Below, one piece after another: positions 5,447 through 16,393 of a stretch of 64,000 nt of DNA. The notes under the pieces are model-generated. The model worked only from the letters and a program-made list of their open reading frames with translations. It ran no database searches and was not told the DNA's origin. The stretch is from Escherichia phage Bp7: sequence record NC_019500.1. One strand, written 5' to 3'. The translations under genes were made by a program, and so were the position numbers. The number at the start of each line of letters is the position of its first letter. Position 1 is the first letter of the stretch.

Positions 5447-5468
5447 AAGGGACTTCGGTCCCTTTTGG
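5447..5468 (+). terminator. UUCG-tetraloop hairpin followed by a U-run (intrinsic terminator or gene 43 leader structure)
   Basis: aagggacTTCGgtccctttt. Confidence 0.45.
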
Positions 5469-5524
5469 AGTATAATGATTCATCAACAAACAAAAGACAA
5501 TCACTCGTCTATAAAGGAAATGAA

Positions 5525-8236
5525 ATGCAAGAATTCTATTTGACAGTCGAACAAATCGGTGATAATATTCTCGAACGTTACATCGATAAAAATGGTAACG
5601 AACGTAGTCGTGAAGTTCCATACAAGCCTACAATGTTTATGCATGCTAATCCAGAGCAAGCCGTAAAATACATTGATATCTACGGTAAGGGTTGTGTTAA
5701 GAAAGAATTCGACTCTATGCGTGATGCATCCCAATGGATGAAACGTATGGACGATATGGGTCTCGAAGCCCTGGGTATGGACGACTATAAATTAGCCTAT
5801 TTGTCTGATACCTATCGTAAAGAAATCAGATATGATTCTTCTAAGATTCGTATTGCTAACTTCGACATCGAGGTAACATCTCCTGATGGATTCCCTGAAC
5901 CAGCTCAGGCTAAACATCCTATCGATGCCATTACCCACTACGACTCGATTGACGATAAATTCTATGTATTCGACCTTTTAGTTTCGCCTTATGGTACTGT
6001 TGAAGAGTGGTCGATTAAAATCGCTGAGAAACTCCAAGACGAAGGCGGTGACGAAGTTCCACAAGAAATCATTGACAAAATCGTTTATCTTCCGTTTAAT
6101 TCTGAAGAAGAAATGATGCTTGAGTACTTGAATTTCTGGCAACAGAAAACTCCTGTGATTTTGACTGGATGGAACGTTGAGTCGTTTGACGTACCATACG
6201 TTTATAACCGTCTGAAAAATCTGTTCGGTGAGAACACTGCTAAGCGATTAAGCCCACATCGTAAAACTCGTGTTAAAGTTATCGAGAACATGTACGGTGC
6301 TCGTGAAATCATTACATTGTTCGGTATCTCTGTTCTGGATTATATCGACCTGTATAAAAAATTCAGCTTTACCAACCAGCCTTCTTATTCTCTGGATTAT
6401 GTTTCTGAATATGAATTGAAAGTAGGTAAGTTGAAATATGATGGCCCAATCTCCAAGTTACGTGAGACGAACCACCAACGATATATTTCCTATAACATTA
6501 TCGACGTATATCGTGTAGTGCAGATTGATATGAAGCGTCAGTTCATTCTTCTGAGTTTGGACATGGGTTATTATGCCAAGATGCAGATTCAGTCGGTGTT
6601 CAGCCCAATTAAGACTTGGGACGCTATTATCTTTAATAGCCTTAAAGAACAAGGCAAGGTAATTCCACAAGCTCGCTCACACGTGGTCCAACCTTATCCT
6701 GGTGCTTTCGTTAAGGAACCGATTCCTAACGCTTACAAATATGTAATGAGTTTCGACCTTACATCTCTGTATCCGAGTATCATTCGACAAGTGAATATAA
6801 GCCCAGAGACCATCGCAGGGACATTCGCTAACGCACCGATACATGAATATATTGCCGGAACTGCTCAGCGTCCTAGCGACACCTACAGTTGCTCTCCTAA
6901 CGGCATGATGTACTATAAAGACCGTGAAGGTGTGATTCCGACAGAAATCACCAAGGTATTCTTGCAGCGTAAAGAACATAAAGGTTACATGCTTGCAGCT
7001 CAACGTAATGGTGAGTTAATTAAAGAAGCATTGGAAAATCCTAATCTCTCAGTTGATAGTCCACTGGATATCGATTATCGTTTTGACTTCTCTGACGAAA
7101 TCAAAGCCCAGATTAAAGCACTGTCAGCGCCTTCTTTAAGAGAAATGTTGAAGAAAGCCGAGCTCACTGAAGTTGCAGGTAACACTGCTCAGATTAACCG
7201 TAAGTTGCTTATCAACTCCCTTTACGGTGCACTTGGTAACGTATGGTTCCGTTACTATGACCTCAGGAACGCAACTGCAATCACACTGTTTGGTCAAATG
7301 GCCCTCCAATGGATTGAACGTAAGGTTAACGAATATCTGAATAGCGTGTGTAAGACTGAAAATCAGAAGTTCGTGCTCTATGGTGATACTGACTCCATTT
7401 ATGTTAAGGCAGATGCAATCATCAATAAAGTAGGCGAAGATAAATTCCGTGACACTAACCACTGGGTCGACTTCTTAGATAAATTTGCACGTGAACGTAT
7501 GGAACCAGCTATTGATGCAGGCTTCCGTGAGATGTGTGAGTACATGAACAACAAACAACACTTGATGTTCATGGACCGAGAAGCTATCGCTGGTCCTCCA
7601 CTTGGTTCTAAAGGCCTTGGTGGATTCTGGACAGGCAAGAAACGTTATGCACTTAACGTTTGGGACATGGAAGGTACTCGTTATGCCGAACCACACTTGA
7701 AAATCATGGGTCTCGAAACTCAGAAATCAAGTACACCTAAAGCAGTTCAGAAAGCTCTGAAGGAATGTATCCGTCGTATGCTTCAGGAAGGCGAGGCATC
7801 TTTGCAAGAATATTTCAAACAGTTTAATAAGGAATTTAACGAACTCGATTATGTAAGCATTGCAGCAGTATCCAGTGCTAACAACATCGAGAAATATAAT
7901 GAAGGTGGATTCCCTGGCTCTAAATGTCCGTACCACATCAAAGGTTGCTTAGCTTACATGCGTGCTTCTGCAGGTGATTTGACTATGCCTCGTATCGTTG
8001 ATGGTGAAAAGGTATATGTACTGCCGCTTAAAGAAGGCAACCCGTTCGGTGAAGCTTGTATGGCATGGCCGTCAGGTATTGAACTTCCGGTTCAGATTCG
8101 TGACCAAGTCCTCCGTTGGATGGACTACAACGTACTGTTCCAAAAGACCTTTATCAAGCCTCTGACTGGTTTTACTGAGTCCGCTAAAATCGACTACGAG
8201 AAAAAAGCAACATTATTTGACATGTTTGACTTTTAA
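5525..8236 (+). CDS. 43: gp43 DNA polymerase (family B) with 3'-5' exonuclease
   Basis: 903 aa; Exo motifs FDIE and YNIIDV, polymerase motifs DLTSLYPSI, KILINSLYG, YGDTDS; start chosen at MQEFYLTVEQ (5525), not the upstream ORF-track ATG. Confidence 0.95.
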   Translation: MQEFYLTVEQIGDNILERYIDKNGNERSREVPYKPTMFMHANPEQAVKYIDIYGKGCVKKEFDSMRDASQWMKRMDDMGLEALGMDDYKLAYLSDTYRKEIRYDSSKIRIANFDIEVTSPDGFPEPAQAKHPIDAITHYDSIDDKFYVFDLLVSPYGTVEEWSIKIAEKLQDEGGDEVPQEIIDKIVYLPFNSEEEMMLEYLNFWQQKTPVILTGWNVESFDVPYVYNRLKNLFGENTAKRLSPHRKTRVKVIENMYGAREIITLFGISVLDYIDLYKKFSFTNQPSYSLDYVSEYELKVGKLKYDGPISKLRETNHQRYISYNIIDVYRVVQIDMKRQFILLSLDMGYYAKMQIQSVFSPIKTWDAIIFNSLKEQGKVIPQARSHVVQPYPGAFVKEPIPNAYKYVMSFDLTSLYPSIIRQVNISPETIAGTFANAPIHEYIAGTAQRPSDTYSCSPNGMMYYKDREGVIPTEITKVFLQRKEHKGYMLAAQRNGELIKEALENPNLSVDSPLDIDYRFDFSDEIKAQIKALSAPSLREMLKKAELTEVAGNTAQINRKLLINSLYGALGNVWFRYYDLRNATAITLFGQMALQWIERKVNEYLNSVCKTENQKFVLYGDTDSIYVKADAIINKVGEDKFRDTNHWVDFLDKFARERMEPAIDAGFREMCEYMNNKQHLMFMDREAIAGPPLGSKGLGGFWTGKKRYALNVWDMEGTRYAEPHLKIMGLETQKSSTPKAVQKALKECIRRMLQEGEASLQEYFKQFNKEFNELDYVSIAAVSSANNIEKYNEGGFPGSKCPYHIKGCLAYMRASAGDLTMPRIVDGEKVYVLPLKEGNPFGEACMAWPSGIELPVQIRDQVLRWMDYNVLFQKTFIKPLTGFTESAKIDYEKKATLFDMFDF

Positions 8237-8238
8237 GT

Positions 8239-8268
8239 GTTTACATACCACAAGGAACGTGGTAGTAT
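8239..8268 (+). promoter_or_regulatory. early promoter cassette
   Basis: gtttac, 18 bp, tagtat, then cctatcaact and gaggaa RBS. Confidence 0.4.
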
Positions 8269-8298
8269 CCTTCCTATCAACTACATGAGGAAATTACA

Positions 8299-8535
8299 AT
8301 GGAAGCTTTAATCGTTAGTGCTGGTGTTTTAGGATTCGGTTCTCTGGTTATTATGTTCATCGGTTACTTTTTACCATGGATTCTGGCTCTTCTGCGAGGC
8401 ACTCGTAGTAATGTCGGAATTTTCTTCCTTAATCTCCTGTTAGGCTGGACGATGATTGGTTGGGTAGTGGCTTTAATCTGGGCCATCGTCGCTGAACGTA
8501 AATCAAACGCTCAAATCATTATTGTTAAACAATGA
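8299..8535 (+). CDS. imm: small two-helix membrane protein, Imm-like superinfection immunity candidate
   Basis: 78 aa, hydrophobic, GW...GW pattern; located between 43 and the 42-like gene as T4 imm is. Confidence 0.4.
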   Translation: MEALIVSAGVLGFGSLVIMFIGYFLPWILALLRGTRSNVGIFFLNLLLGWTMIGWVVALIWAIVAERKSNAQIIIVKQ

Positions 8536-8669
8536 AAATAATTATTTTATTTCTTATAATGGCCGCCTTTACCATTTACTGGGCAGTGGCAATTCCACCA
8601 ATGATTCCGACACTAATCATCGGATGGATTATTCTTATAGCACAAATTAAGTATAACTGTTTTAATTGA
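8532..8669 (+). CDS. small hydrophobic membrane peptide (45 aa)
   Basis: ATG overlaps the upstream stop (ATGA); MKIIILFLIMAAFTIYWAVAIPPMIPTLIIGWIILIAQ. Confidence 0.3.
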   Translation: MKIIILFLIMAAFTIYWAVAIPPMIPTLIIGWIILIAQIKYNCFN

Positions 8670-8676
8670 GGATATT

Positions 8677-9177
8677 ATGAAAAAGTTAATTATCGCAATG
8701 AGTATGCTCCTATCAGGTTGCGCAGTCCAGTACGGTGATGCAGTTTCGGCTGATGAAGTTGGTAAAGCTCGTATCGCAGCTGAACAGAAACAATTCGATG
8801 GCGAAATGAAATTCCGTGCAGGTTCAGGACTTGTGTATACCCGAGCTAATAATCAATGTGGTAATAACTGTGCAAAATATGCTCAACGAGAAATTGAATT
8901 CCAACGTGAACAAGAGTCTAAGCGTGAAGCGGTACTAGCCAAACGCCAGGCAGAAATGAAGCGCCAAGATGATTTGTATAAAAAGCAGAAACTGTATGCG
9001 ATGTGCGTAAACCATATCAATCTACAGATTTCTATCCATGAGGCTCGTTATTACGAAATGCTCGAAACCGAAAGCTTTGATAAGGCCCGTGATTATAAGA
9101 AACAAATCAATAAGCTCAAGACCAAAGTGCCGGCAGCAATAGAACAGTGCATCGAAATCGGTAAAGATAAGATTTAA
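8677..9177 (+). CDS. lipoprotein (signal peptide plus lipobox LSGC) with coiled-coil C-terminal part
   Basis: MKKLIIAMSMLLSGCAVQ. Confidence 0.45.
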   Translation: MKKLIIAMSMLLSGCAVQYGDAVSADEVGKARIAAEQKQFDGEMKFRAGSGLVYTRANNQCGNNCAKYAQREIEFQREQESKREAVLAKRQAEMKRQDDLYKKQKLYAMCVNHINLQISIHEARYYEMLETESFDKARDYKKQINKLKTKVPAAIEQCIEIGKDKI

Positions 9178-9180
9178 GCA

Positions 9181-9209
9181 GTATCAATTTATTAAAAATA
9201 GTGTATAAT
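9181..9209 (+). promoter_or_regulatory. sigma70-type promoter with extended -10
   Basis: gtatca, 17 bp, tgTATAAT, upstream of the nucleotidyltransferase-kinase gene. Confidence 0.35.
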
Positions 9210-9237
9210 GTACCTACATTCACTTGAGGAACAGATA

Positions 9238-10911
9238 ATGAAAAAGGTTGTTATTTTAGGCGCAGGTCTTGGCTCACGGTTGTATCCAATTACTAACGAA
9301 ATCCCGAAGGTATTGGTTAACTACAAACAACATACAGTACTAAAACATTTGTATGATTTGTATAGTAACCAATCAGATGAAATCATTTTGGTAATTCATA
9401 GCAAATTTAATGACCTTGTTAAGGGTTACATTAAATCCATTAACATGATTACCAGTGATAAGCCTAAATTCATTATTCGTAACGTAGATGTTGCCAATGG
9501 TTCAGCTCATGCTATCGATTGCATTGCTGAAGATATCATCGGGCACAACGTCCTGTTTAACTGGTGTGACATCATTCCTGAGGGTCATAAAGTTGAGTGG
9601 GATAACGACTACTGTTATACCTACGGGACTGACTGTCGTTTTACATTTGAAGAACCGTATTTGCGTGAAATTGGTACCGGCGGTGGTGTGGTTGGTTTGT
9701 ATCAGGTGGCTAATTGGACAGGTTTCGACCGTTCTAATTATGGTGAAGACCTTGCCGACAACCTGGATTCGATGGTCTATTTGACTGAACGTAAGCTGGA
9801 CTTTGTAGTTGATGTAGGTGACAAACTGAAACTGGCTAAGGCCCATGAAGATTCCGAAATTAACCGTGAATTTAATAAATTAGAGTTCACTGAGAATCTG
9901 GCTATTAAAGTACCAACTAACGAATTAGGTAAAGAAATCCAATCTAAAGAAATCAATTGGTACAATTCTATTGATTCTGAATTCGTTCCGAGCATTGTAG
10001 ACTTTGCTCCAGGTGAATTCATTAAAATGGAACGTATCTTTGGACGCACCATGGCAGATGCCTACCGGTTTATGTCTAAAGAAACTAAAGTCCTCATGGT
10101 TTATAAGGTCATTAGTGCATTACGTTCATTTGGTGGAACCATCGATAATCCATCTGATGAGCAATGGTATTCTGATGTTAAGAAAGAAGTATTGGACAAG
10201 GTCCTTATTCGTAATGCTTCTATTGCTGGATTGATTGAAGGCTTTGCTCCACAGGGCATTACCCATGTCAATGACTTTAAGGTAGGCGACCCGGAAAAAC
10301 TTCTTCGTCACGCCTTAGAAATTCTGTCTGAACATAAAGAACCGTACCAACTTATTCATGGCGACCCGCACTACAGTAATATTATGTTGTCGGACGAAGG
10401 TAATATTAAAATCATCGACCCACGTGGTTATTTTGGTAATAGTTCTAAAGGCCCTGCGATTTATGATGAAGCTAAGGTGCTTTATTCTATCGATGGCTAT
10501 GACAAATTTAACTCTGACCCTCTATGGGGTGGCTTAACTCGTAACGGAACTCGTGTATTCGTTGATATTGAAAAGGTTATGCCTTTAGATGATATTCCAA
10601 TGTGTACATTTAAGCACAAGCTCTGGATTGCTGTTATCTGGATGGCACTGGCAGGTTACTTTAAAAATAACCCTCTGAAAGCTCTGGGTGCTTATTACAA
10701 TGGGCTATATCAACTGAGTGTGCTGCTGAAGCGGCATCCTCGTAAGCGTAAGCTTATCACAGGTGAATTCGTCGATGAAGTTCGCGACCCTATCACGGCT
10801 CAAATTATCACTCGTTGTCCTGATAAGTGGGTTTTGCTTGACCAGGAAACTGGTGTAAAATATAAACCTACAGGTTCTACCGAACTCCACAAACAATGGA
10901 AGAAAATTTAA
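9238..10911 (+). CDS. bifunctional nucleotidyltransferase (N-terminal) / APH-like kinase (C-terminal) fusion
   Basis: N-terminal ILGAGLGSRL (G-x-G-x-R-L sugar-phosphate nucleotidyltransferase motif); C-terminal HGDPHYSNIMLSDEGNIKIIDPRG (Brenner-type kinase catalytic loop). Confidence 0.55.
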   Translation: MKKVVILGAGLGSRLYPITNEIPKVLVNYKQHTVLKHLYDLYSNQSDEIILVIHSKFNDLVKGYIKSINMITSDKPKFIIRNVDVANGSAHAIDCIAEDIIGHNVLFNWCDIIPEGHKVEWDNDYCYTYGTDCRFTFEEPYLREIGTGGGVVGLYQVANWTGFDRSNYGEDLADNLDSMVYLTERKLDFVVDVGDKLKLAKAHEDSEINREFNKLEFTENLAIKVPTNELGKEIQSKEINWYNSIDSEFVPSIVDFAPGEFIKMERIFGRTMADAYRFMSKETKVLMVYKVISALRSFGGTIDNPSDEQWYSDVKKEVLDKVLIRNASIAGLIEGFAPQGITHVNDFKVGDPEKLLRHALEILSEHKEPYQLIHGDPHYSNIMLSDEGNIKIIDPRGYFGNSSKGPAIYDEAKVLYSIDGYDKFNSDPLWGGLTRNGTRVFVDIEKVMPLDDIPMCTFKHKLWIAVIWMALAGYFKNNPLKALGAYYNGLYQLSVLLKRHPRKRKLITGEFVDEVRDPITAQIITRCPDKWVLLDQETGVKYKPTGSTELHKQWKKI

Positions 10912-11270
10912 TGCATCTGTGTTTTGATATCGATAATACCATTACTCACTGGCAAGATGACCGTGATTACGAAAACTTTAAACCGGACACCGAAATGGTG
11001 TCCATGATTAATAAGCTTTATGATGAAGGGTACGAGATTACCTTGTTCACTGCCCGTGGTATGACTTCATGCGGCCCAGGTCGAATCTTGGTTGAAGTAG
11101 TTCCTGCATTAGTTAAGAACCTTGAAAAGATTGGATTGAAATATCACAATCTGCTTACACATAAGCCGAGTTATACTTTTATCATCGATGACCGAGCAAT
11201 CCGTCCTGACCACTTTAAAGAAATGGTTCGTGAAGGAACTCTTGAAACCTATAAGGCATATCATCCGTGA
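10911..11270 (+). CDS. HAD-superfamily phosphatase (small)
   Basis: DxDxT motif in MHLCFDIDNTI, FTARG and IIDDR motifs; alternative start at 10896. Confidence 0.5.
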   Translation: MHLCFDIDNTITHWQDDRDYENFKPDTEMVSMINKLYDEGYEITLFTARGMTSCGPGRILVEVVPALVKNLEKIGLKYHNLLTHKPSYTFIIDDRAIRPDHFKEMVREGTLETYKAYHP

Positions 11271-11803
11271 AACCAAAAATCATTGTTATCGACGGCCCGG
11301 ATAATTCCGGGAAGTCTACTTTAATTGAATCACTTTTATCTGATAAGAAATATCGTCTTATTGATTTCCCTAAAAAGATTAATGGCAAATGCATTTCATT
11401 AGGGACTGATAATGACAAGGCTTTAGTCGAGACGTTGTATAAGTTTTTAGACCCTAATTTTGTCTACATCTTAGACCGTGGGTATCCTAGTAATATTGTT
11501 TACTCTGGATTCCTTCGTGGTGAAATGGACCCTTATGTAGAACTGGAAGATTGGAAAGGGTTTAAATCTGAATTCAATATTATTGAGGTTATTTTAACCC
11601 GTAATCCACTGGATAAAGACTTTGAAGATGACCTTATTAAATTAACCAAAGATGAGTTCAACCTAACTATCCGGCAATATGAAACATGTTTTGAAAACGT
11701 GTTTAAAATCTTAAATCACGACGGCCATAATAACTTGCTTAACGTCGATATGGTAGAATTAAAACGTCTGAATGAATATATTGAAAATAAGGTGAATAAA
11801 TGA
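11267..11803 (+). CDS. P-loop nucleoside/nucleotide kinase, thymidylate-kinase-like
   Basis: Walker A IVIDGPDNSGKST and a DRGY...S motif (TMPK DRY-like). Confidence 0.5.
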   Translation: MKPKIIVIDGPDNSGKSTLIESLLSDKKYRLIDFPKKINGKCISLGTDNDKALVETLYKFLDPNFVYILDRGYPSNIVYSGFLRGEMDPYVELEDWKGFKSEFNIIEVILTRNPLDKDFEDDLIKLTKDEFNLTIRQYETCFENVFKILNHDGHNNLLNVDMVELKRLNEYIENKVNK

Positions 11804-12498
11804 AACACATTACCGCTGTTAGTTTTGAAAACGCGTTTAAGCAAATGAACGAAGAAATCCTGGAAGCTCCACAGTTTGCAGTTGATTCTCGTATCGGCCG
11901 TTGTTATGAAATTGGTTCTGCTTCGGTAGAAGTACTGGATGCAAGCACCTATAAATTCACCGACCCTCGTATTAATCGTATCAACTATGATTATGCCGAA
12001 TCTTTCTGGAAGTTTATGATTTCTGGTGGTACTGACGCCACCGAAGCATTTAAGGAATACCCTAATGTTGCTAAGTTCATTGATAAGCCGAAAAGTGACG
12101 TATTGCCTGCAAACTTCAACACTTTCTATGGACCTAGAATTGTGGCCCAACTCCCAGCCCTACTTAAAGAGCTTAAAGAAAAGCCTAACTCGAGACGAGT
12201 TGTGTTCCAAATTCTCCAAGAACAAGACCAAGCCCTCCTTGATTCTGACGAATCCTTAGAATATCCATGTACCGATTCGGTGACATATTATATTCGTGAT
12301 GGACGTCTGTATGCACACACCCATATGCGTTCACAGAACTGTGCTATCGTTATGCAGCTGGATTTCTATCTGCAGGGTAAACTGATGGCCTTTATTGCTG
12401 AACAGTGTGGTGTTGGTCTGGGTACATATTCCCATACTATGGTTAGTGCACATGTATTTGAACGTGATTTTGACTACGTTCGAGGATTCCTGAAATGA
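11800..12498 (+). CDS. 42: pyrimidine hydroxymethylase, gene-42-like (thymidylate synthase fold)
   Basis: YPCTDSVTYYIRD and HMRSQNCAIVMQLDFYLQ resemble the T4 gp42 catalytic Cys region; lies between 43 and uvsX. Confidence 0.6.
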   Translation: MKHITAVSFENAFKQMNEEILEAPQFAVDSRIGRCYEIGSASVEVLDASTYKFTDPRINRINYDYAESFWKFMISGGTDATEAFKEYPNVAKFIDKPKSDVLPANFNTFYGPRIVAQLPALLKELKEKPNSRRVVFQILQEQDQALLDSDESLEYPCTDSVTYYIRDGRLYAHTHMRSQNCAIVMQLDFYLQGKLMAFIAEQCGVGLGTYSHTMVSAHVFERDFDYVRGFLK

Positions 12499-13388
12499 GT
12501 TTGTTTATCGTTCCTATTTTCAGTATGCGTAGTTACGAAACAGGTGAATATGCCGTCCTTAAGGACGGTAATTTTCAACTCCATTTAAACCGTGCTTGCC
12601 CAGGTGATTATCTGGCTTATCCTAGAAATTCGAGCGATATCAAAGAATGCATTGAATTATTTCCTGAACTGAATTTTGTACCTCTTTGGTATAAAGAAAA
12701 TGCTTATGAAACTCGTAAACATTTTTGGTCTGAAAATGAGTTCGTTGTTGATTCGTTAATCGAATACTATGACTGCTCAGGATTGGTAACCGATATCACA
12801 GGTTATGAGGGTACCCAGACTGTACAATTCAACTTTAACATTACAATGGACCCTGAAGTTCCTCGTTATTATATTGATGAGTTCATTGATATCGACGTGT
12901 CTTCAGTTGAACGTTCGATTTATACTACAGTCTTGAATCAATGTCAGAAAGACGTCCTGGTGACACGAGGTGCGTCCTCTGATAAGATTTTTGTAGACCA
13001 AAAGGTAATTAATCCGGCAGTAATTGAGCGTTACTCTGAAGGTCTAGCGCCTATTAAAATTGATGGTATTTTCCATCCATTCCGTATCTCTGATAAATGC
13101 TATCAATTCGAAAGAGTTGTAGACCAAGCTGCGGCTGAAGGTTCTCGCCTTTATATCACCGATCCGAATGATTCATTTAAACGTGAAGACTATCGTCCTG
13201 ATGTAGAGATTATTAAATTCAAACCGAGTAAGGTTGAATATTATCAGATTCTGAAATCAAGACCTCATATCATTTATCATGAGAATCCTGGTTTAGTATT
13301 CCATCCAGGTCTAGCCGAATTCATTTATTTCGGTGCCCATATCCATTCTGAGCACGAAATGCCAAGTTATGAGGACGTGGTCCTTTAA
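12495..13388 (+). CDS. hypothetical protein at the position of T4 beta-glucosyltransferase; candidate DNA sugar transferase
   Basis: 297 aa, start overlaps the 42-like stop (ATGA); no motif recognised, assignment is positional only. Confidence 0.3.
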   Translation: MSLFIVPIFSMRSYETGEYAVLKDGNFQLHLNRACPGDYLAYPRNSSDIKECIELFPELNFVPLWYKENAYETRKHFWSENEFVVDSLIEYYDCSGLVTDITGYEGTQTVQFNFNITMDPEVPRYYIDEFIDIDVSSVERSIYTTVLNQCQKDVLVTRGASSDKIFVDQKVINPAVIERYSEGLAPIKIDGIFHPFRISDKCYQFERVVDQAAAEGSRLYITDPNDSFKREDYRPDVEIIKFKPSKVEYYQILKSRPHIIYHENPGLVFHPGLAEFIYFGAHIHSEHEMPSYEDVVL

Positions 13389-13465: not shown

Positions 13466-14647
13466 ATGTCTGATTTAAAATCCCGTTTGATTAAAGCTTC
13501 TACTTCTAAAATGACCGCCGACCTGACCAAATCTAAATTGTTTAATGGTCGTGACGAAGTTCCTACTCGTATCCCTATGCTGAATATTGCATTGGGCGGT
13601 GCGTTGAATGCAGGCTTACAATCAGGTTTGACAATCTTTGCTGCTCCATCTAAACACTTTAAAACGTTGTTTGGACTTACCATGGTTGCGGCATATATGA
13701 AGAAATATCCAGACGCAATTTGTTTGTTCTATGACTCTGAGTTTGGTGCTTCAGAATCTTATTTCCGTTCGATGGGTGTTGATTTGGAACGTGTGGTTCA
13801 TACACCAATCCAGTCAGTCGAACAGCTTAAAGTTGATATGACCAACCAGTTAGAAGAAATTACTCGTGGCGAAAAGGTTATTATCTTTATCGACTCCATT
13901 GGTAACACTGCTTCTAAGAAAGAAACCGAAGATGCTTTGAACGAGAAAGTTGTAGGTGATATGACTCGTGCTAAATCACTGAAATCTCTGTTCCGTATCG
14001 TAACACCTTATCTGACCATCAAAGATATCCCTTGTGTAGCAATTAACCACACGGCTATGGAAATTGGTGGAATGTACCCTAAAGAGATTATGGGTGGTGG
14101 TACTGGTATTCTGTACTCTGCTTCTACCGTGTTCTTTATCTCTAAACGTCAGGTTAAAGATGGTACTGAGCTCACTGGTTATGACTTCACACTGAAGGCC
14201 GAGAAATCTCGTACGGTTAAAGAGAAATCAACGTTCCCGATTACAGTGAACTTCGAAGGTGGTATCGACCCATTCAGTGGATTGCTTGAAATGGCTACTG
14301 ATATTGGCTTTGTCGTGAAACCTAAAGCTGGCTGGTATAATCGTGCATTCCTTGACGAAACCACAGGCGAAATGGTTCAAGAAGAAAAAGCATGGCGTGC
14401 TAAAGCTACCGATTGTGTTGAGTTCTGGGGACCGCTGTTTAAACATGCTCCGTTCCGTGAAGCAATCGAGAATAAGTATAAGCTTGGTGCAATTAATTCT
14501 ATTAAAGAAGTTGACGATGCGGTAAATGACCTTATTAACTCTCGTGTCTCTAAGAACGTTGCTGTTAAATTAAGCGGAAATACCCAAAGCGCCGCTGATA
14601 TCGAAAACGATTTAGAAAATATGAATTTTGTGAGCGACCATGACTGA
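13466..14647 (+). CDS. uvsX: UvsX recombinase (RecA-like)
   Basis: MSDLKSRLIKASTSKMTADLTKSKLFNGRDEVPTRIPMLNIALGG is near-identical to T4 UvsX. Confidence 0.95.
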   Translation: MSDLKSRLIKASTSKMTADLTKSKLFNGRDEVPTRIPMLNIALGGALNAGLQSGLTIFAAPSKHFKTLFGLTMVAAYMKKYPDAICLFYDSEFGASESYFRSMGVDLERVVHTPIQSVEQLKVDMTNQLEEITRGEKVIIFIDSIGNTASKKETEDALNEKVVGDMTRAKSLKSLFRIVTPYLTIKDIPCVAINHTAMEIGGMYPKEIMGGGTGILYSASTVFFISKRQVKDGTELTGYDFTLKAEKSRTVKEKSTFPITVNFEGGIDPFSGLLEMATDIGFVVKPKAGWYNRAFLDETTGEMVQEEKAWRAKATDCVEFWGPLFKHAPFREAIENKYKLGAINSIKEVDDAVNDLINSRVSKNVAVKLSGNTQSAADIENDLENMNFVSDHD

Positions 14648-14969
14648 TTTATCTGATTTAGATAATTTTGTTAAAGATACCGAAGAGGGTCCTAGTGACC
14701 CTCGTTATTATGAGAAATCGTTAGATATAATCCGTAAGTCAATGGGTTCTGTTAAGCAGGAAATTATGCTTACTTTACCCGATGGCACTGCTCACATCGT
14801 TTATGTGATGAATATTGTTATTGAGAAAGATGGAAAAGTGTCGGTTGATTTCGGAACACCTTCCGAAGACCGAAAAGAAGAGCTAGCGCTTCATGTAGAA
14901 AAATGTGTTACAATGCAAATACAAGAAGAACTGGATAAAATTAAATCTAAGAGGTGGTGGAAGTGGTAG
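14640..14969 (+). CDS. 40: gp40-like head assembly protein
   Basis: 109-aa ORF between uvsX and 41. Confidence 0.5.
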   Translation: MTDLSDLDNFVKDTEEGPSDPRYYEKSLDIIRKSMGSVKQEIMLTLPDGTAHIVYVMNIVIEKDGKVSVDFGTPSEDRKEELALHVEKCVTMQIQEELDKIKSKRWWKW

Positions 14970-16393
14970 AAACTATTTTGGCTCAACTGCTAGGCAATAG
15001 TGATTATTTCACTAAGGTCTGGCCTTATATGAATGATTCTTATTTTGACCAGGGTCCTGCAAAGACCCTTTTCAAAGAAATTAAAAAACACGTCAATGAA
15101 TATAATGCAGTGCCTTCTAAGAACGCGCTGAGCATTGCATTAGATAACAGTACGCTTTCAGAAGTTGAACATCAAGGCGCTAAAGAGCTTTTAAGTTCAC
15201 TGAATGCCGGACCTGAAGACCAAGAATGGTTGGTTAAAGAGACGGAGAAATACGTTCAGAAAGCAGCGATGTATAATGCAACTTCAAAAATCATTGAAAT
15301 CCAAACTAATGCCGACCTTCCGGTTGAGCAACAAAATAGAAAACTTCCAGGTATTGGTGCTATTCCGGATATCATGCGTGATGCATTATCGATTTGTTTC
15401 GATTCTGAATTAGGTCATGACTGGATGGATGACTATGAAGAACGTTTCAAAAGTTATTCTGATAAAGCACGTAAGGTTCCGTTCCGTCTTAATATTCTGA
15501 ATAAGATTACCAAAGGTGGTGCCGAGTTTGGTACTGAAAACGTATTGTTGGCAGGAACAAACGTAGGTAAGTCTCTTGGTCTTTGTTCATTGGCTGCTGA
15601 TTATCTTCAATCTGGTTACGATGTTCTTTATATCTCCATGGAGATGGCAGAGGAAGTATGTGCTAAGCGTATCGATGCCAACCTTCTGGATGTATCACTG
15701 GATGATATCGATGATGGCCACGTCTCTTGGCCTGAATATAAAGCTAAGATGGATAAATGGCGTTCAACTGCTACTTTAGGTCGTTTAAAGATTAAACAGT
15801 ATCCTACTGGTGGTGCTAATGCCGATACATTCCGTGCATTATTAAACGAATACAAGCTCAAACAAAACTTTGTCCCTCAGGTTGTTATCGTCGACTACTT
15901 GGCTATCTGCGCATCGTCTCGTACGAAAGTTTTCTCTGAAAACAGTTACGGATTGATTAAGATGGTTGCTGAAGAACTACGTGGACTTGCAGTAGAGAAG
16001 AAATTATTGCTGTGGACAGCCGCCCAGACTACTCGTGGTGCAAACGTTGCAGCCGAAATCGATATGGCTGATATTGCTGAATCATTTGGTATTGCACATA
16101 CTGCAGACTTCATGTTGGGTGTGGTCGAGACAGAAGAGTTTGCTCAGATGGGTATGCAGATGGTTAAGCAGCTTAAATCTCGTTATGGTGATAAGAGCTA
16201 CTACAACAAATTTAAGATTGGTGTTAAGAAAGGAAATCAGCGTTGGTACGAAGTTGAAGATGATTCCAACCCGGGCCCAGTGAACACTGTTCGTGAGGCC
16301 ACAGGTGAGATGAATCGTCAAGCCGAGGTCAATCGACAGACGCGTGTTAATAGAAGTGATTTGGACGATTTAGCAGCATCTATCAAATTTTAA
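14954..16393 (+). CDS. 41: gp41 replicative DNA helicase (DnaB-like)
   Basis: 479 aa; LAGTNVGKSLGLCSLAADYL Walker A; co-linear with T4 gp41. Confidence 0.95.
   Translation: MVEVVETILAQLLGNSDYFTKVWPYMNDSYFDQGPAKTLFKEIKKHVNEYNAVPSKNALSIALDNSTLSEVEHQGAKELLSSLNAGPEDQEWLVKETEKYVQKAAMYNATSKIIEIQTNADLPVEQQNRKLPGIGAIPDIMRDALSICFDSELGHDWMDDYEERFKSYSDKARKVPFRLNILNKITKGGAEFGTENVLLAGTNVGKSLGLCSLAADYLQSGYDVLYISMEMAEEVCAKRIDANLLDVSLDDIDDGHVSWPEYKAKMDKWRSTATLGRLKIKQYPTGGANADTFRALLNEYKLKQNFVPQVVIVDYLAICASSRTKVFSENSYGLIKMVAEELRGLAVEKKLLLWTAAQTTRGANVAAEIDMADIAESFGIAHTADFMLGVVETEEFAQMGMQMVKQLKSRYGDKSYYNKFKIGVKKGNQRWYEVEDDSNPGPVNTVREATGEMNRQAEVNRQTRVNRSDLDDLAASIKF

Follow-up and report, generated by a model that had tools for sequence, protein, structure and literature searches.

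The 64,000-nucleotide stretch of Escherichia phage Bp7 DNA analysed here (NC_019500.1; referred to below as the window) comes from a T4-like phage genome of the genus Dhakavirus. The gene at positions 9238–10911 of the window (+ strand) encodes a 557-amino-acid protein in which a nucleotidyltransferase and an APH-fold kinase are fused in one polypeptide. We conclude with considerable confidence that this protein is the Dhakavirus ortholog of AfhE, a bifunctional enzyme that contributes to the sugar donor for arabinosylated 5-hydroxycytosine. The gene was assigned from its open reading frame (ORF), from homology to proteins of phages HY126 and RB69, and from an end-to-end match to the protein family phrog_4098.

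Two enzyme domains are fused in one phage protein

An earlier note, made from the sequence alone, had proposed that this gene encodes such a fusion, and had quoted one motif from each domain. Both motifs translate exactly as quoted: ILGAGLGSRL lies at nucleotides 9253–9282 (residues 6–15), and HGDPHYSNIMLSDEGNIKIIDPRG lies at nucleotides 10357–10428 (residues 374–397). Pfam matches, which we judged against the curated gathering cut-offs, placed NTP_transferase (PF00483) at residues 3–99 with 32.7 bits (cut-off 21.2) and APH (PF01636) at residues 346–417 with 26.1 bits (cut-off 23.2). An AlphaFold2 model built from the homolog alignment had a mean predicted local distance difference test score (pLDDT) of 92.2 and a predicted template modelling score (pTM) of 0.88. 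The proposed two-domain architecture is borne out by these Pfam matches and this model, together with the invariant residues and the Foldseek comparisons described below.

We aligned the protein with 34 homologs, down to 30% identity, giving an alignment of 35 sequences. The N-terminal sugar-1-phosphate nucleotidyltransferase domain comprises residues 1 to ~205 (9238–9852, + strand), with the G-x-G-x-R-L...P-K signature at residues 8–24, and is supported by PF00483, by sequence and structural matches in the PDB, and by invariant residues. Residues G10, R14, L15, P23, K24, D111, D192, G194 and D195 are invariant in the alignment; D111, D192 and D195 are the invariant acidic residues, corresponding to acidic metal ligands. 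A Foldseek search of the PDB with the first ~205 residues returned GalU, RmlA, MurU (4y7t), HddC (5xhw) and LicC (1jyl). We also searched the PDB by sequence for a solved structure of AfhE and found none; the nearest matches of the N-terminal domain, with E-values of ~1e-4 to 1e-3, were HddC (6jq8/5xhw), which was the best match (E = 2e-4), and LicC (1jyk).

The C-terminal part of the protein is an APH/choline-kinase-fold domain, that is, a eukaryotic-like kinase, comprising residues ~210–498 (9865–10731, + strand). Residues K224, E238, H374, G375, D376, N381 and D394 are invariant in the same alignment, and they include the landmarks of such kinases: the beta-3 lysine (K224), the alpha-C glutamate (E238), the catalytic loop H374-G375-D376 with N381, and D394 of the I-D-P motif, which is the DFG equivalent and is followed by an invariant PRGYFG. 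Five basic residues of the kinase domain (K321, R325, R396, K413 and K481) are also invariant. Foldseek matched this part of the protein to the aminoglycoside kinase APH(2'')-IIIa, and the other structural matches were sugar, choline and aminoglycoside kinases, including glucosamine kinase and three kinases that act on the anomeric position, maltokinase, methylthioribose kinase and NahK. The earlier note had named a non-kinase fold of this region as the result that would count against it; the fold found, with the APH match above its cut-off, is that of a kinase.

The last ~59 residues (499–557; 10732–10908, + strand) form a tail of short beta-strands, delimited by alignment occupancy and modelled with a pLDDT of 71–86. 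The tail is kept in the proteins of T4-like phages (Straboviridae) and is missing from homologs of ~30% identity on jumbo-phage-like contigs of 310–340 kb. The NCBIfam equivalog model NF045697 for the MurU family scored far below its cut-off (24.6 bits against 370), and the NCBIfam model NF045761 scored 20.1 bits against a cut-off of 250. No HldE model or structure was among the Pfam, NCBIfam, PDB sequence and Foldseek matches.

The protein is orthologous to AfhE of phage HY126

Comparison with the HY126 protein XAN60479 gave 43% identity in a colinear alignment over 557 of 562 amino acids (E = 3e-143). We take XAN60479 to be AfhE from the position of its gene and from the text of Lee et al. 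(NAR 2026, PMC13326640), the record itself being without that label. RB69 ORF53_52c gave 41–44% identity over its two halves, and phrog_4098 was matched at 1–557 of its 559 positions (E = 3e-268). The Bp7 protein resembles HY126 AfhE (which corresponds to RB69 ORF53_52c/gp52:53 and to DLP3 gp82) in length, in domain order, in its invariant catalytic residues and in the position of its gene between gp43 and uvsX. The surrounding cluster is likewise similar to that of HY126, with a HAD phosphatase, a 5-hydroxydeoxycytidine monophosphate (5-hydroxy-dCMP) synthase and a glycosyltransferase as neighbours. The folds of the two domains, the conserved catalytic residues, the orthology and the shared gene order are what the analysis itself shows for the Bp7 gene.

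The fusion itself is already known, the gene having been recognised in IME08 and in Dhakaviruses and the family having been characterised biochemically. RB69 ORF053c and ORF052c were shown to be a single gene for a protein of 561 amino acids, split by a sequencing error, with IME08 gp43 named as a full-length homolog and a role in UDP-arabinose synthesis proposed (Thomas et al. 2018, PMC6024577). RB69 gp52:53 and DLP3 gp82 have been modelled with an N-terminal nucleotidyltransferase domain and a C-terminal kinase domain, the modified base has been established as arabinosylated 5-hydroxycytosine rather than hydroxymethylcytosine, and comparative genomics placed the Dhakaviruses among the genera with a syntenic cluster (Lee et al., PMC13326640). 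Including the homologs from Thanatos and HY126, the fusion has been described earlier for RB69, IME08, Thanatos, DLP3 and HY126. The Thanatos homolog, TH1_060, is 44% identical to the Bp7 protein and is essential for phage growth (PMC12838424).

The fused architecture was present in 366 phage records, and in 365 of these the match extended over 80% or more of the query. The phages concerned infect Escherichia, Acinetobacter, Klebsiella, Vibrio, Serratia, Yersinia, Shewanella and other hosts, and one record from the BASEL collection labels the fusion "putative enzyme involved in UDP-arabinose biosynthesis". In two metagenomic proteins, P0075 (922 amino acids) and P0097 (946 amino acids), Pfam shows the nucleotidyltransferase and the APH kinase joined within one chain to two further domains, a HAD phosphatase and an SIS isomerase. 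Such a four-domain fusion is the expected signature of an isomerase, a kinase, a phosphatase and a nucleotidyltransferase that share one pathway, and these proteins would hold all steps from ribulose 5-phosphate to a nucleoside diphosphate sugar (NDP-sugar) within a single polypeptide.

Homologs of ~30% identity were found at 8001–9665 of locus L004 and at 8001–9659 of locus L005, which lie on contigs of 310–316 kb. We considered a bacterial origin for the homologs of ~30% identity on contigs of 310–340 kb and rejected it, since the genes around them include topoisomerase II subunits, a UvrD helicase, NinX and numerous small genes that carry no annotation; from their gene content, the contigs look like jumbo phages. 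In L004 an SIS-domain gene lies directly 5' of the fusion homolog, and in both loci a gene resembling Fapy-DNA glycosylase lies 1–3 kb downstream of it.

A proposed pathway to the sugar donor

By analogy with HY126, we infer a pathway whose substrates, order of steps, use of UTP and source of arabinose 5-phosphate are as follows. D-arabinose 5-phosphate would be made from ribulose 5-phosphate; as we found no isomerase gene of the phage itself, KdsD and GutQ of the host are the probable isomerases. The C-terminal APH-fold kinase, with ATP held by K224, E238, N381 and D394 and with D376 as the catalytic base, would phosphorylate arabinose 5-phosphate at the anomeric C1, yielding arabinofuranose 1,5-bisphosphate. 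The product of the adjacent HAD phosphatase gene (10896–11270) would strip the 5-phosphate, leaving arabinofuranose 1-phosphate, which the N-terminal domain (G-x-G-x-R14, K24, D111 and D192/D195) would join with UTP to give UDP-D-arabinofuranose. The 297-amino-acid glycosyltransferase encoded at 12495–13388 would use this UDP-sugar to arabinosylate 5-hydroxycytosine, and the thymidylate-synthase-like enzyme encoded at 11800–12498 would provide this base in the form of 5-hydroxy-dCMP. The two activities of the fused protein would therefore be steps two and four of the pathway, and would not be consecutive.

UDP-D-arabinofuranose is not known to be made by the E. coli host. The earlier note had expected the phage to activate the sugar itself instead of relying on NDP-sugars of the host; we take this to be correct, and likewise its inclusion of arabinose among the candidate substrates. 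The note had also proposed that the protein phosphorylates a substrate and then nucleotidylates it. This outline stands, but the two steps are unlikely to follow one another directly: as far as the account in PMC13326640 goes, HY126 AfhE converts arabinofuranose 5-phosphate to arabinofuranose 1,5-bisphosphate, and the HAD-family protein AfhF afterwards takes off a phosphate, leaving arabinofuranose 1-phosphate (He et al., Nat Chem Biol 2026, cited there). Both activities of the fusion, this ATP-dependent phosphorylation and the formation of UDP-arabinofuranose from arabinofuranose 1-phosphate and UTP, are reported for the HY126 enzyme only. The same account, in which D-arabinofuranose 5-phosphate is the substrate of the orthologous AfhE, argues against the free sugar or small alcohol that the note had envisaged as the kinase substrate.

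Alternative interpretations

Several points weigh against equating the Bp7 protein with AfhE in every respect. The biochemistry of He et al. is taken second-hand from PMC13326640. Identity to the characterised enzyme is only 43%, such that the sugar and nucleotide specificity are inferred, and purified TH1_060 of Thanatos gave no UDP-xylose from xylose 1-phosphate (PMC12838424), although xylose 1-phosphate is not the substrate that would be expected. Our literature search turned up no chemical analysis of Dhakavirus DNA. The cluster also appears to be reduced. A tblastn search of the window with gp55, the arabinose-5-phosphate isomerase of RB69, gave no match. Of the 276 phage records with gp55 we sampled 60 at even spacing, and none of the ~50 Dhakavirus records was among these 60. 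Homologs of RB69 gp50 (a U32-like protein) and of the second arabinosyltransferase, gp3, were absent from the window, and the sampled list of gp3 matches contained no Dhakavirus. For the isomerase and the second glycosyltransferase, this absence covers the window and the sampled match lists rather than complete Dhakavirus genomes. With these three proteins not found, the Dhakavirus pathway would not be identical to the characterised one.

The same identity value, the same reduced cluster and the same gap in the chemical literature could be read as signs of a different specificity, with the enzyme acting on another pentose or hexose phosphate or with another nucleoside triphosphate, and with Dhakavirus DNA carrying an undescribed sugar modification of cytosine other than D-arabinofuranose. 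We regard this as very unlikely, given that identity to the HY126 counterpart is 67% for the glycosyltransferase and 79% for the 5-hydroxy-dCMP synthase, that every family-invariant residue is kept, and that a phage isomerase is dispensable where E. coli supplies arabinose 5-phosphate. A change in the order of the steps is an unlikely alternative of another kind, in which the HAD phosphatase would act first and free arabinose from arabinose 5-phosphate, the kinase would then add a phosphate to C1 of this arabinose, and an NDP-sugar would be made last by the nucleotidyltransferase, as in a salvage pathway and in line with the AmgK/MurU logic of the earlier note. This order is the one given in Table 1 of PMC13326640 for the RB69 and DLP3 proteins ("dephosphorylates Araf5p to Ara", "phosphorylates Ara to Araf1p"), and the nearest solved kinase folds (glucosamine kinase, maltokinase, NahK and methylthioribose kinase) take unphosphorylated substrates. 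By contrast, the text of the same paper, insofar as it relays He et al., has AfhE acting on arabinofuranose 5-phosphate before AfhF removes a phosphate, and the DLP3 counterpart of the HAD protein matched heptose-1,7-bisphosphate 7-phosphatase in structure searches (PMC13326640). The invariant residues K321, R325, R396, K413 and K481 could conceivably hold the 5-phosphate of such a substrate.

Two further interpretations have very little probability in our estimation, and we rejected both. In one, the N-terminal domain would be a glycosyltransferase of the GT-A type, transferring sugar to DNA or to a nucleotide, an early idea for RB69 ORF053c that was also proposed for Thanatos TH1_060; Thomas et al. 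noted a CDD annotation as "glycosyltransferase family A" (PMC6024577), and Brandt et al. retain TH1_060 as a glycosyltransferase candidate (PMC12838424). The nucleotidyltransferase signature G-x-G-x-R...K, the Pfam NTP_transferase match and the structural neighbours, which are sugar-1-phosphate nucleotidyltransferases, all point instead to a nucleotidyltransferase; moreover, ORF53_52c scored poorly against models of phage glucosyltransferases, and the cluster encodes a separate glycosyltransferase. The other interpretation, in which the protein would activate choline, ethanolamine or a similar small alcohol in the manner of LicA/LicC so that a phage or host structure could be decorated, draws on a likeness that is at fold level only (8–17% identity). 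It is at odds with the position of the gene within the DNA arabinosylation module, with which it is co-conserved, and with the different activity shown for the ortholog, according to the portion of that work related in PMC13326640. An AfhE ortholog that acts on arabinose 5-phosphate and provides the donor for DNA arabinosylation remains the reading that we favour.

Dhakaviruses appear to have a minimal arabinosylation cluster

Among the 366 records with an AfhE-like fusion, 79 (50, 23 and 6 in successive identity bands above 60%) represent the Dhakavirus clade and its close relatives. The 287 that remain are near in number to the 276 records with gp55, and the two counts agree with Dhakaviruses being without gp55. 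Homologs of gp3 were almost wholly confined to Mosigvirus and Acinetobacter phages. Dhakaviruses and their relatives among Klebsiella and Proteus phages seem to have neither the isomerase nor a gp50-like protein, and to have a single glycosyltransferase, such that the Dhakavirus arabinosylation cluster appears to be a minimal version. HY126, RB69 and DLP3 differ in encoding their own arabinose-5-phosphate isomerase, which is an accessory to the pathway and not a property of the enzyme itself.

E. coli makes arabinose 5-phosphate for the synthesis of 3-deoxy-D-manno-octulosonic acid (Kdo). With no homologs of gp55, gp50 and gp3 in the window, the Dhakavirus pathway presumably relies on arabinose 5-phosphate that KdsD and GutQ of the host produce. 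Probably only one arabinose is added to the base, which is also the case in Thanatos. An ORF of 166 amino acids (8677–9177, + strand) lies between imm and the AfhE-ortholog gene; it opens with a lipoprotein-type signal, MKKLIIAMSMLLSGC, and belongs to phrog_1754. This ORF occupies the site at which RB69 has its arabinose-5-phosphate isomerase gene.

Neighbouring genes of the cluster

The fusion gene adjoins the HAD phosphatase gene, the 5-hydroxy-dCMP synthase and the putative arabinosyltransferase follow, and the whole cluster lies between gp43 and uvsX. The HAD-family phosphatase (10896–11270, + strand; 124 amino acids) is the likely AfhF ortholog, with 62% identity to the product of the HY126 gene that adjoins AfhE and a match to the capsule-biosynthesis phosphatase model TIGR01689 (1.6e-14). 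Its gene overlaps the 3' end of the AfhE-ortholog gene, stop codon included, by 16 nucleotides. RefSeq records and PHROG 1238 label this gene "phosphoheptose isomerase". Because of the TIGR01689 match and the 62% identity to the HY126 gene in the AfhF position, we judge this label to be a propagated misannotation.

The gene that follows (11267–11803, + strand) encodes a P-loop nucleotide-kinase-like protein of 178 amino acids, which is an ortholog of RB69 gp45, has 36% identity to HY126 XAN60473 and matches phrog_761 ("thymidylate kinase"); its Pfam P-loop matches are weak. It lies here between the HAD and ThyA-like genes, as opposed to after the glycosyltransferase gene in RB69 and HY126, indicating that the module has been rearranged.

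The ThyA-like protein (11800–12498, + strand; 232 amino acids) is an ortholog of the thymidylate-synthase-fold 5-hydroxy-dCMP synthases, with 79% identity to HY126 XAN60475 and a match to Pfam Thymidylat_synt (4.8e-14). At the positions that Lee et al. hold to be diagnostic, it reads E-Y-P-C and R-S-Q-N...L-D, with the numbering (N169/D177) assigned by eye; in a BLAST comparison with an E. coli ThyA sequence, a gap of two amino acids fell on the diagnostic R-S-Q-N motif. Its sequence marks it as of the 5-hydroxy-dCMP synthase type and not as a dCMP hydroxymethylase like T4 gp42. The synthesis of 5-hydroxy-dCMP by RB69 gp48 and DLP3 gp80 has been shown (PMC13326640). The last gene of the cluster (12495–13388, + strand) encodes a putative first DNA arabinosyltransferase of 297 amino acids, an ortholog of RB69 gp46:47 with 67% identity to HY126 XAN60474 (phrog_3891); the role of first arabinosyltransferase has been proposed for proteins of the gp46:47 type (PMC13326640).

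Comparison with known kinase–nucleotidyltransferase systems

The proposed pathway shares its logic with the heptose-nucleotide pathways, in which the enzymes are HldE and GmhB (for ADP-heptose) or HddA, GmhB and HddC (for GDP-heptose). In those pathways, an SIS isomerase makes a sugar phosphate, to which a kinase adds a second phosphate at C1; the distal phosphate is then taken off by a HAD phosphatase, and a nucleotidyltransferase makes the NDP-sugar. HldE also resembles the Bp7 protein in that its kinase and nucleotidyltransferase steps are fused though non-consecutive, and HddC, the last enzyme of the GDP-heptose route, is the best sequence match of the N-terminal domain in the PDB. The folds differ: the HldE kinase is ribokinase-like, that of HddA is of the GHMP type and the HldE transferase is cytidylyltransferase-like, whereas the Bp7 protein has an APH/protein-kinase-like kinase and an RmlA-like transferase. 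Since the kinase fold is APH-like, the likeness to HldE is confined to the logic of the pathway. The sugar also differs, being a pentofuranose, and the product would be destined for DNA rather than for lipopolysaccharide (LPS) or capsule.

The earlier note had drawn its analogy to two pairs, LicA and LicC, which serve phosphocholine, and AmgK and MurU, which serve the recycling of MurNAc. These pairs are indeed neighbours at the level of fold, each combining an APH-fold kinase with a minimal RmlA-like nucleotidyltransferase, and the likeness of the N-terminal domain to the MurU family is at that level only (4y7t). By contrast with the Bp7 protein, they are separate proteins that act consecutively on a free sugar or alcohol, whereas here the domains are fused, the substrate would be phosphorylated and a phosphatase would act in between. 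The heptose-nucleotide pathway is the closer analogy, because the substrate there is a sugar phosphate and a phosphatase step intervenes. The 5-methylthioribose kinase MtnK (2olc, 2pyw), at only 12–17% identity, works in methionine salvage as a stand-alone enzyme; the 5-substituent of its substrate is a thioether and not a phosphate.

Start codon and genomic context

The ORF listing gives a single ORF at 9208–10911 (+ strand; 567 amino acids) if the longest start is taken, with the stop codon at 10909–10911. Translation from 9238 opens with MKKVVILGAG, and every aligned homolog opens there with MKK(V/A)VILG. A candidate Shine-Dalgarno sequence, GAGG, read from the sequence at 9226–9229 (+ strand), lies 8 nucleotides 5' of the ATG at 9238, whereas the ATG further upstream, at 9208, shares nucleotides with a TATAAT hexamer (9204–9209). 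We therefore regard 9238 as the real start of the gene on the evidence of the aligned homolog N-termini, the ribosome-binding site and the location of the 9208 ATG within TATAAT. The 9208 start, and the annotated IME08 start 3 nucleotides further upstream, are probably wrong. A scan for promoters and terminators yielded 20 sites, little more than the 18.3 expected.

The ORF listing places DNA polymerase gp43 at 5465–8236, UvsX at 13466–14647 and the gp41 helicase at 14954–16393. The region of the AfhE-ortholog gene is 95–97% identical in nucleotide sequence to Dhakavirus genomes including IME08, MX01, JS98 and JS10 (~97% to IME08 and MX01), with 50 records at 90% or above. In IME08, orf43 carries the annotation "similar to RB69 orf052c".

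Implications

Because the gene has been recognised before (Thomas et al. 2018; Lee et al. 2026) and the family has been characterised (He et al. 2026), our analysis contributes a correct annotation and no new biology; database records still call the gene "hypothetical protein". The UDP-D-arabinofuranose that the protein would help to make is destined for 5-hydroxycytosine of the phage DNA. In work on related phages, such DNA is reported to withstand most of the restriction enzymes tested and to respond differently where other defence systems of the host are concerned, which is relevant to phage therapy and to making glycosylated DNA enzymatically. The Dhakavirus cluster appears to be minimal and reliant on host arabinose 5-phosphate, and if the enzyme draws on the host pool of Kdo precursors, the modification of phage DNA would be tied to the supply of LPS precursors in the host.

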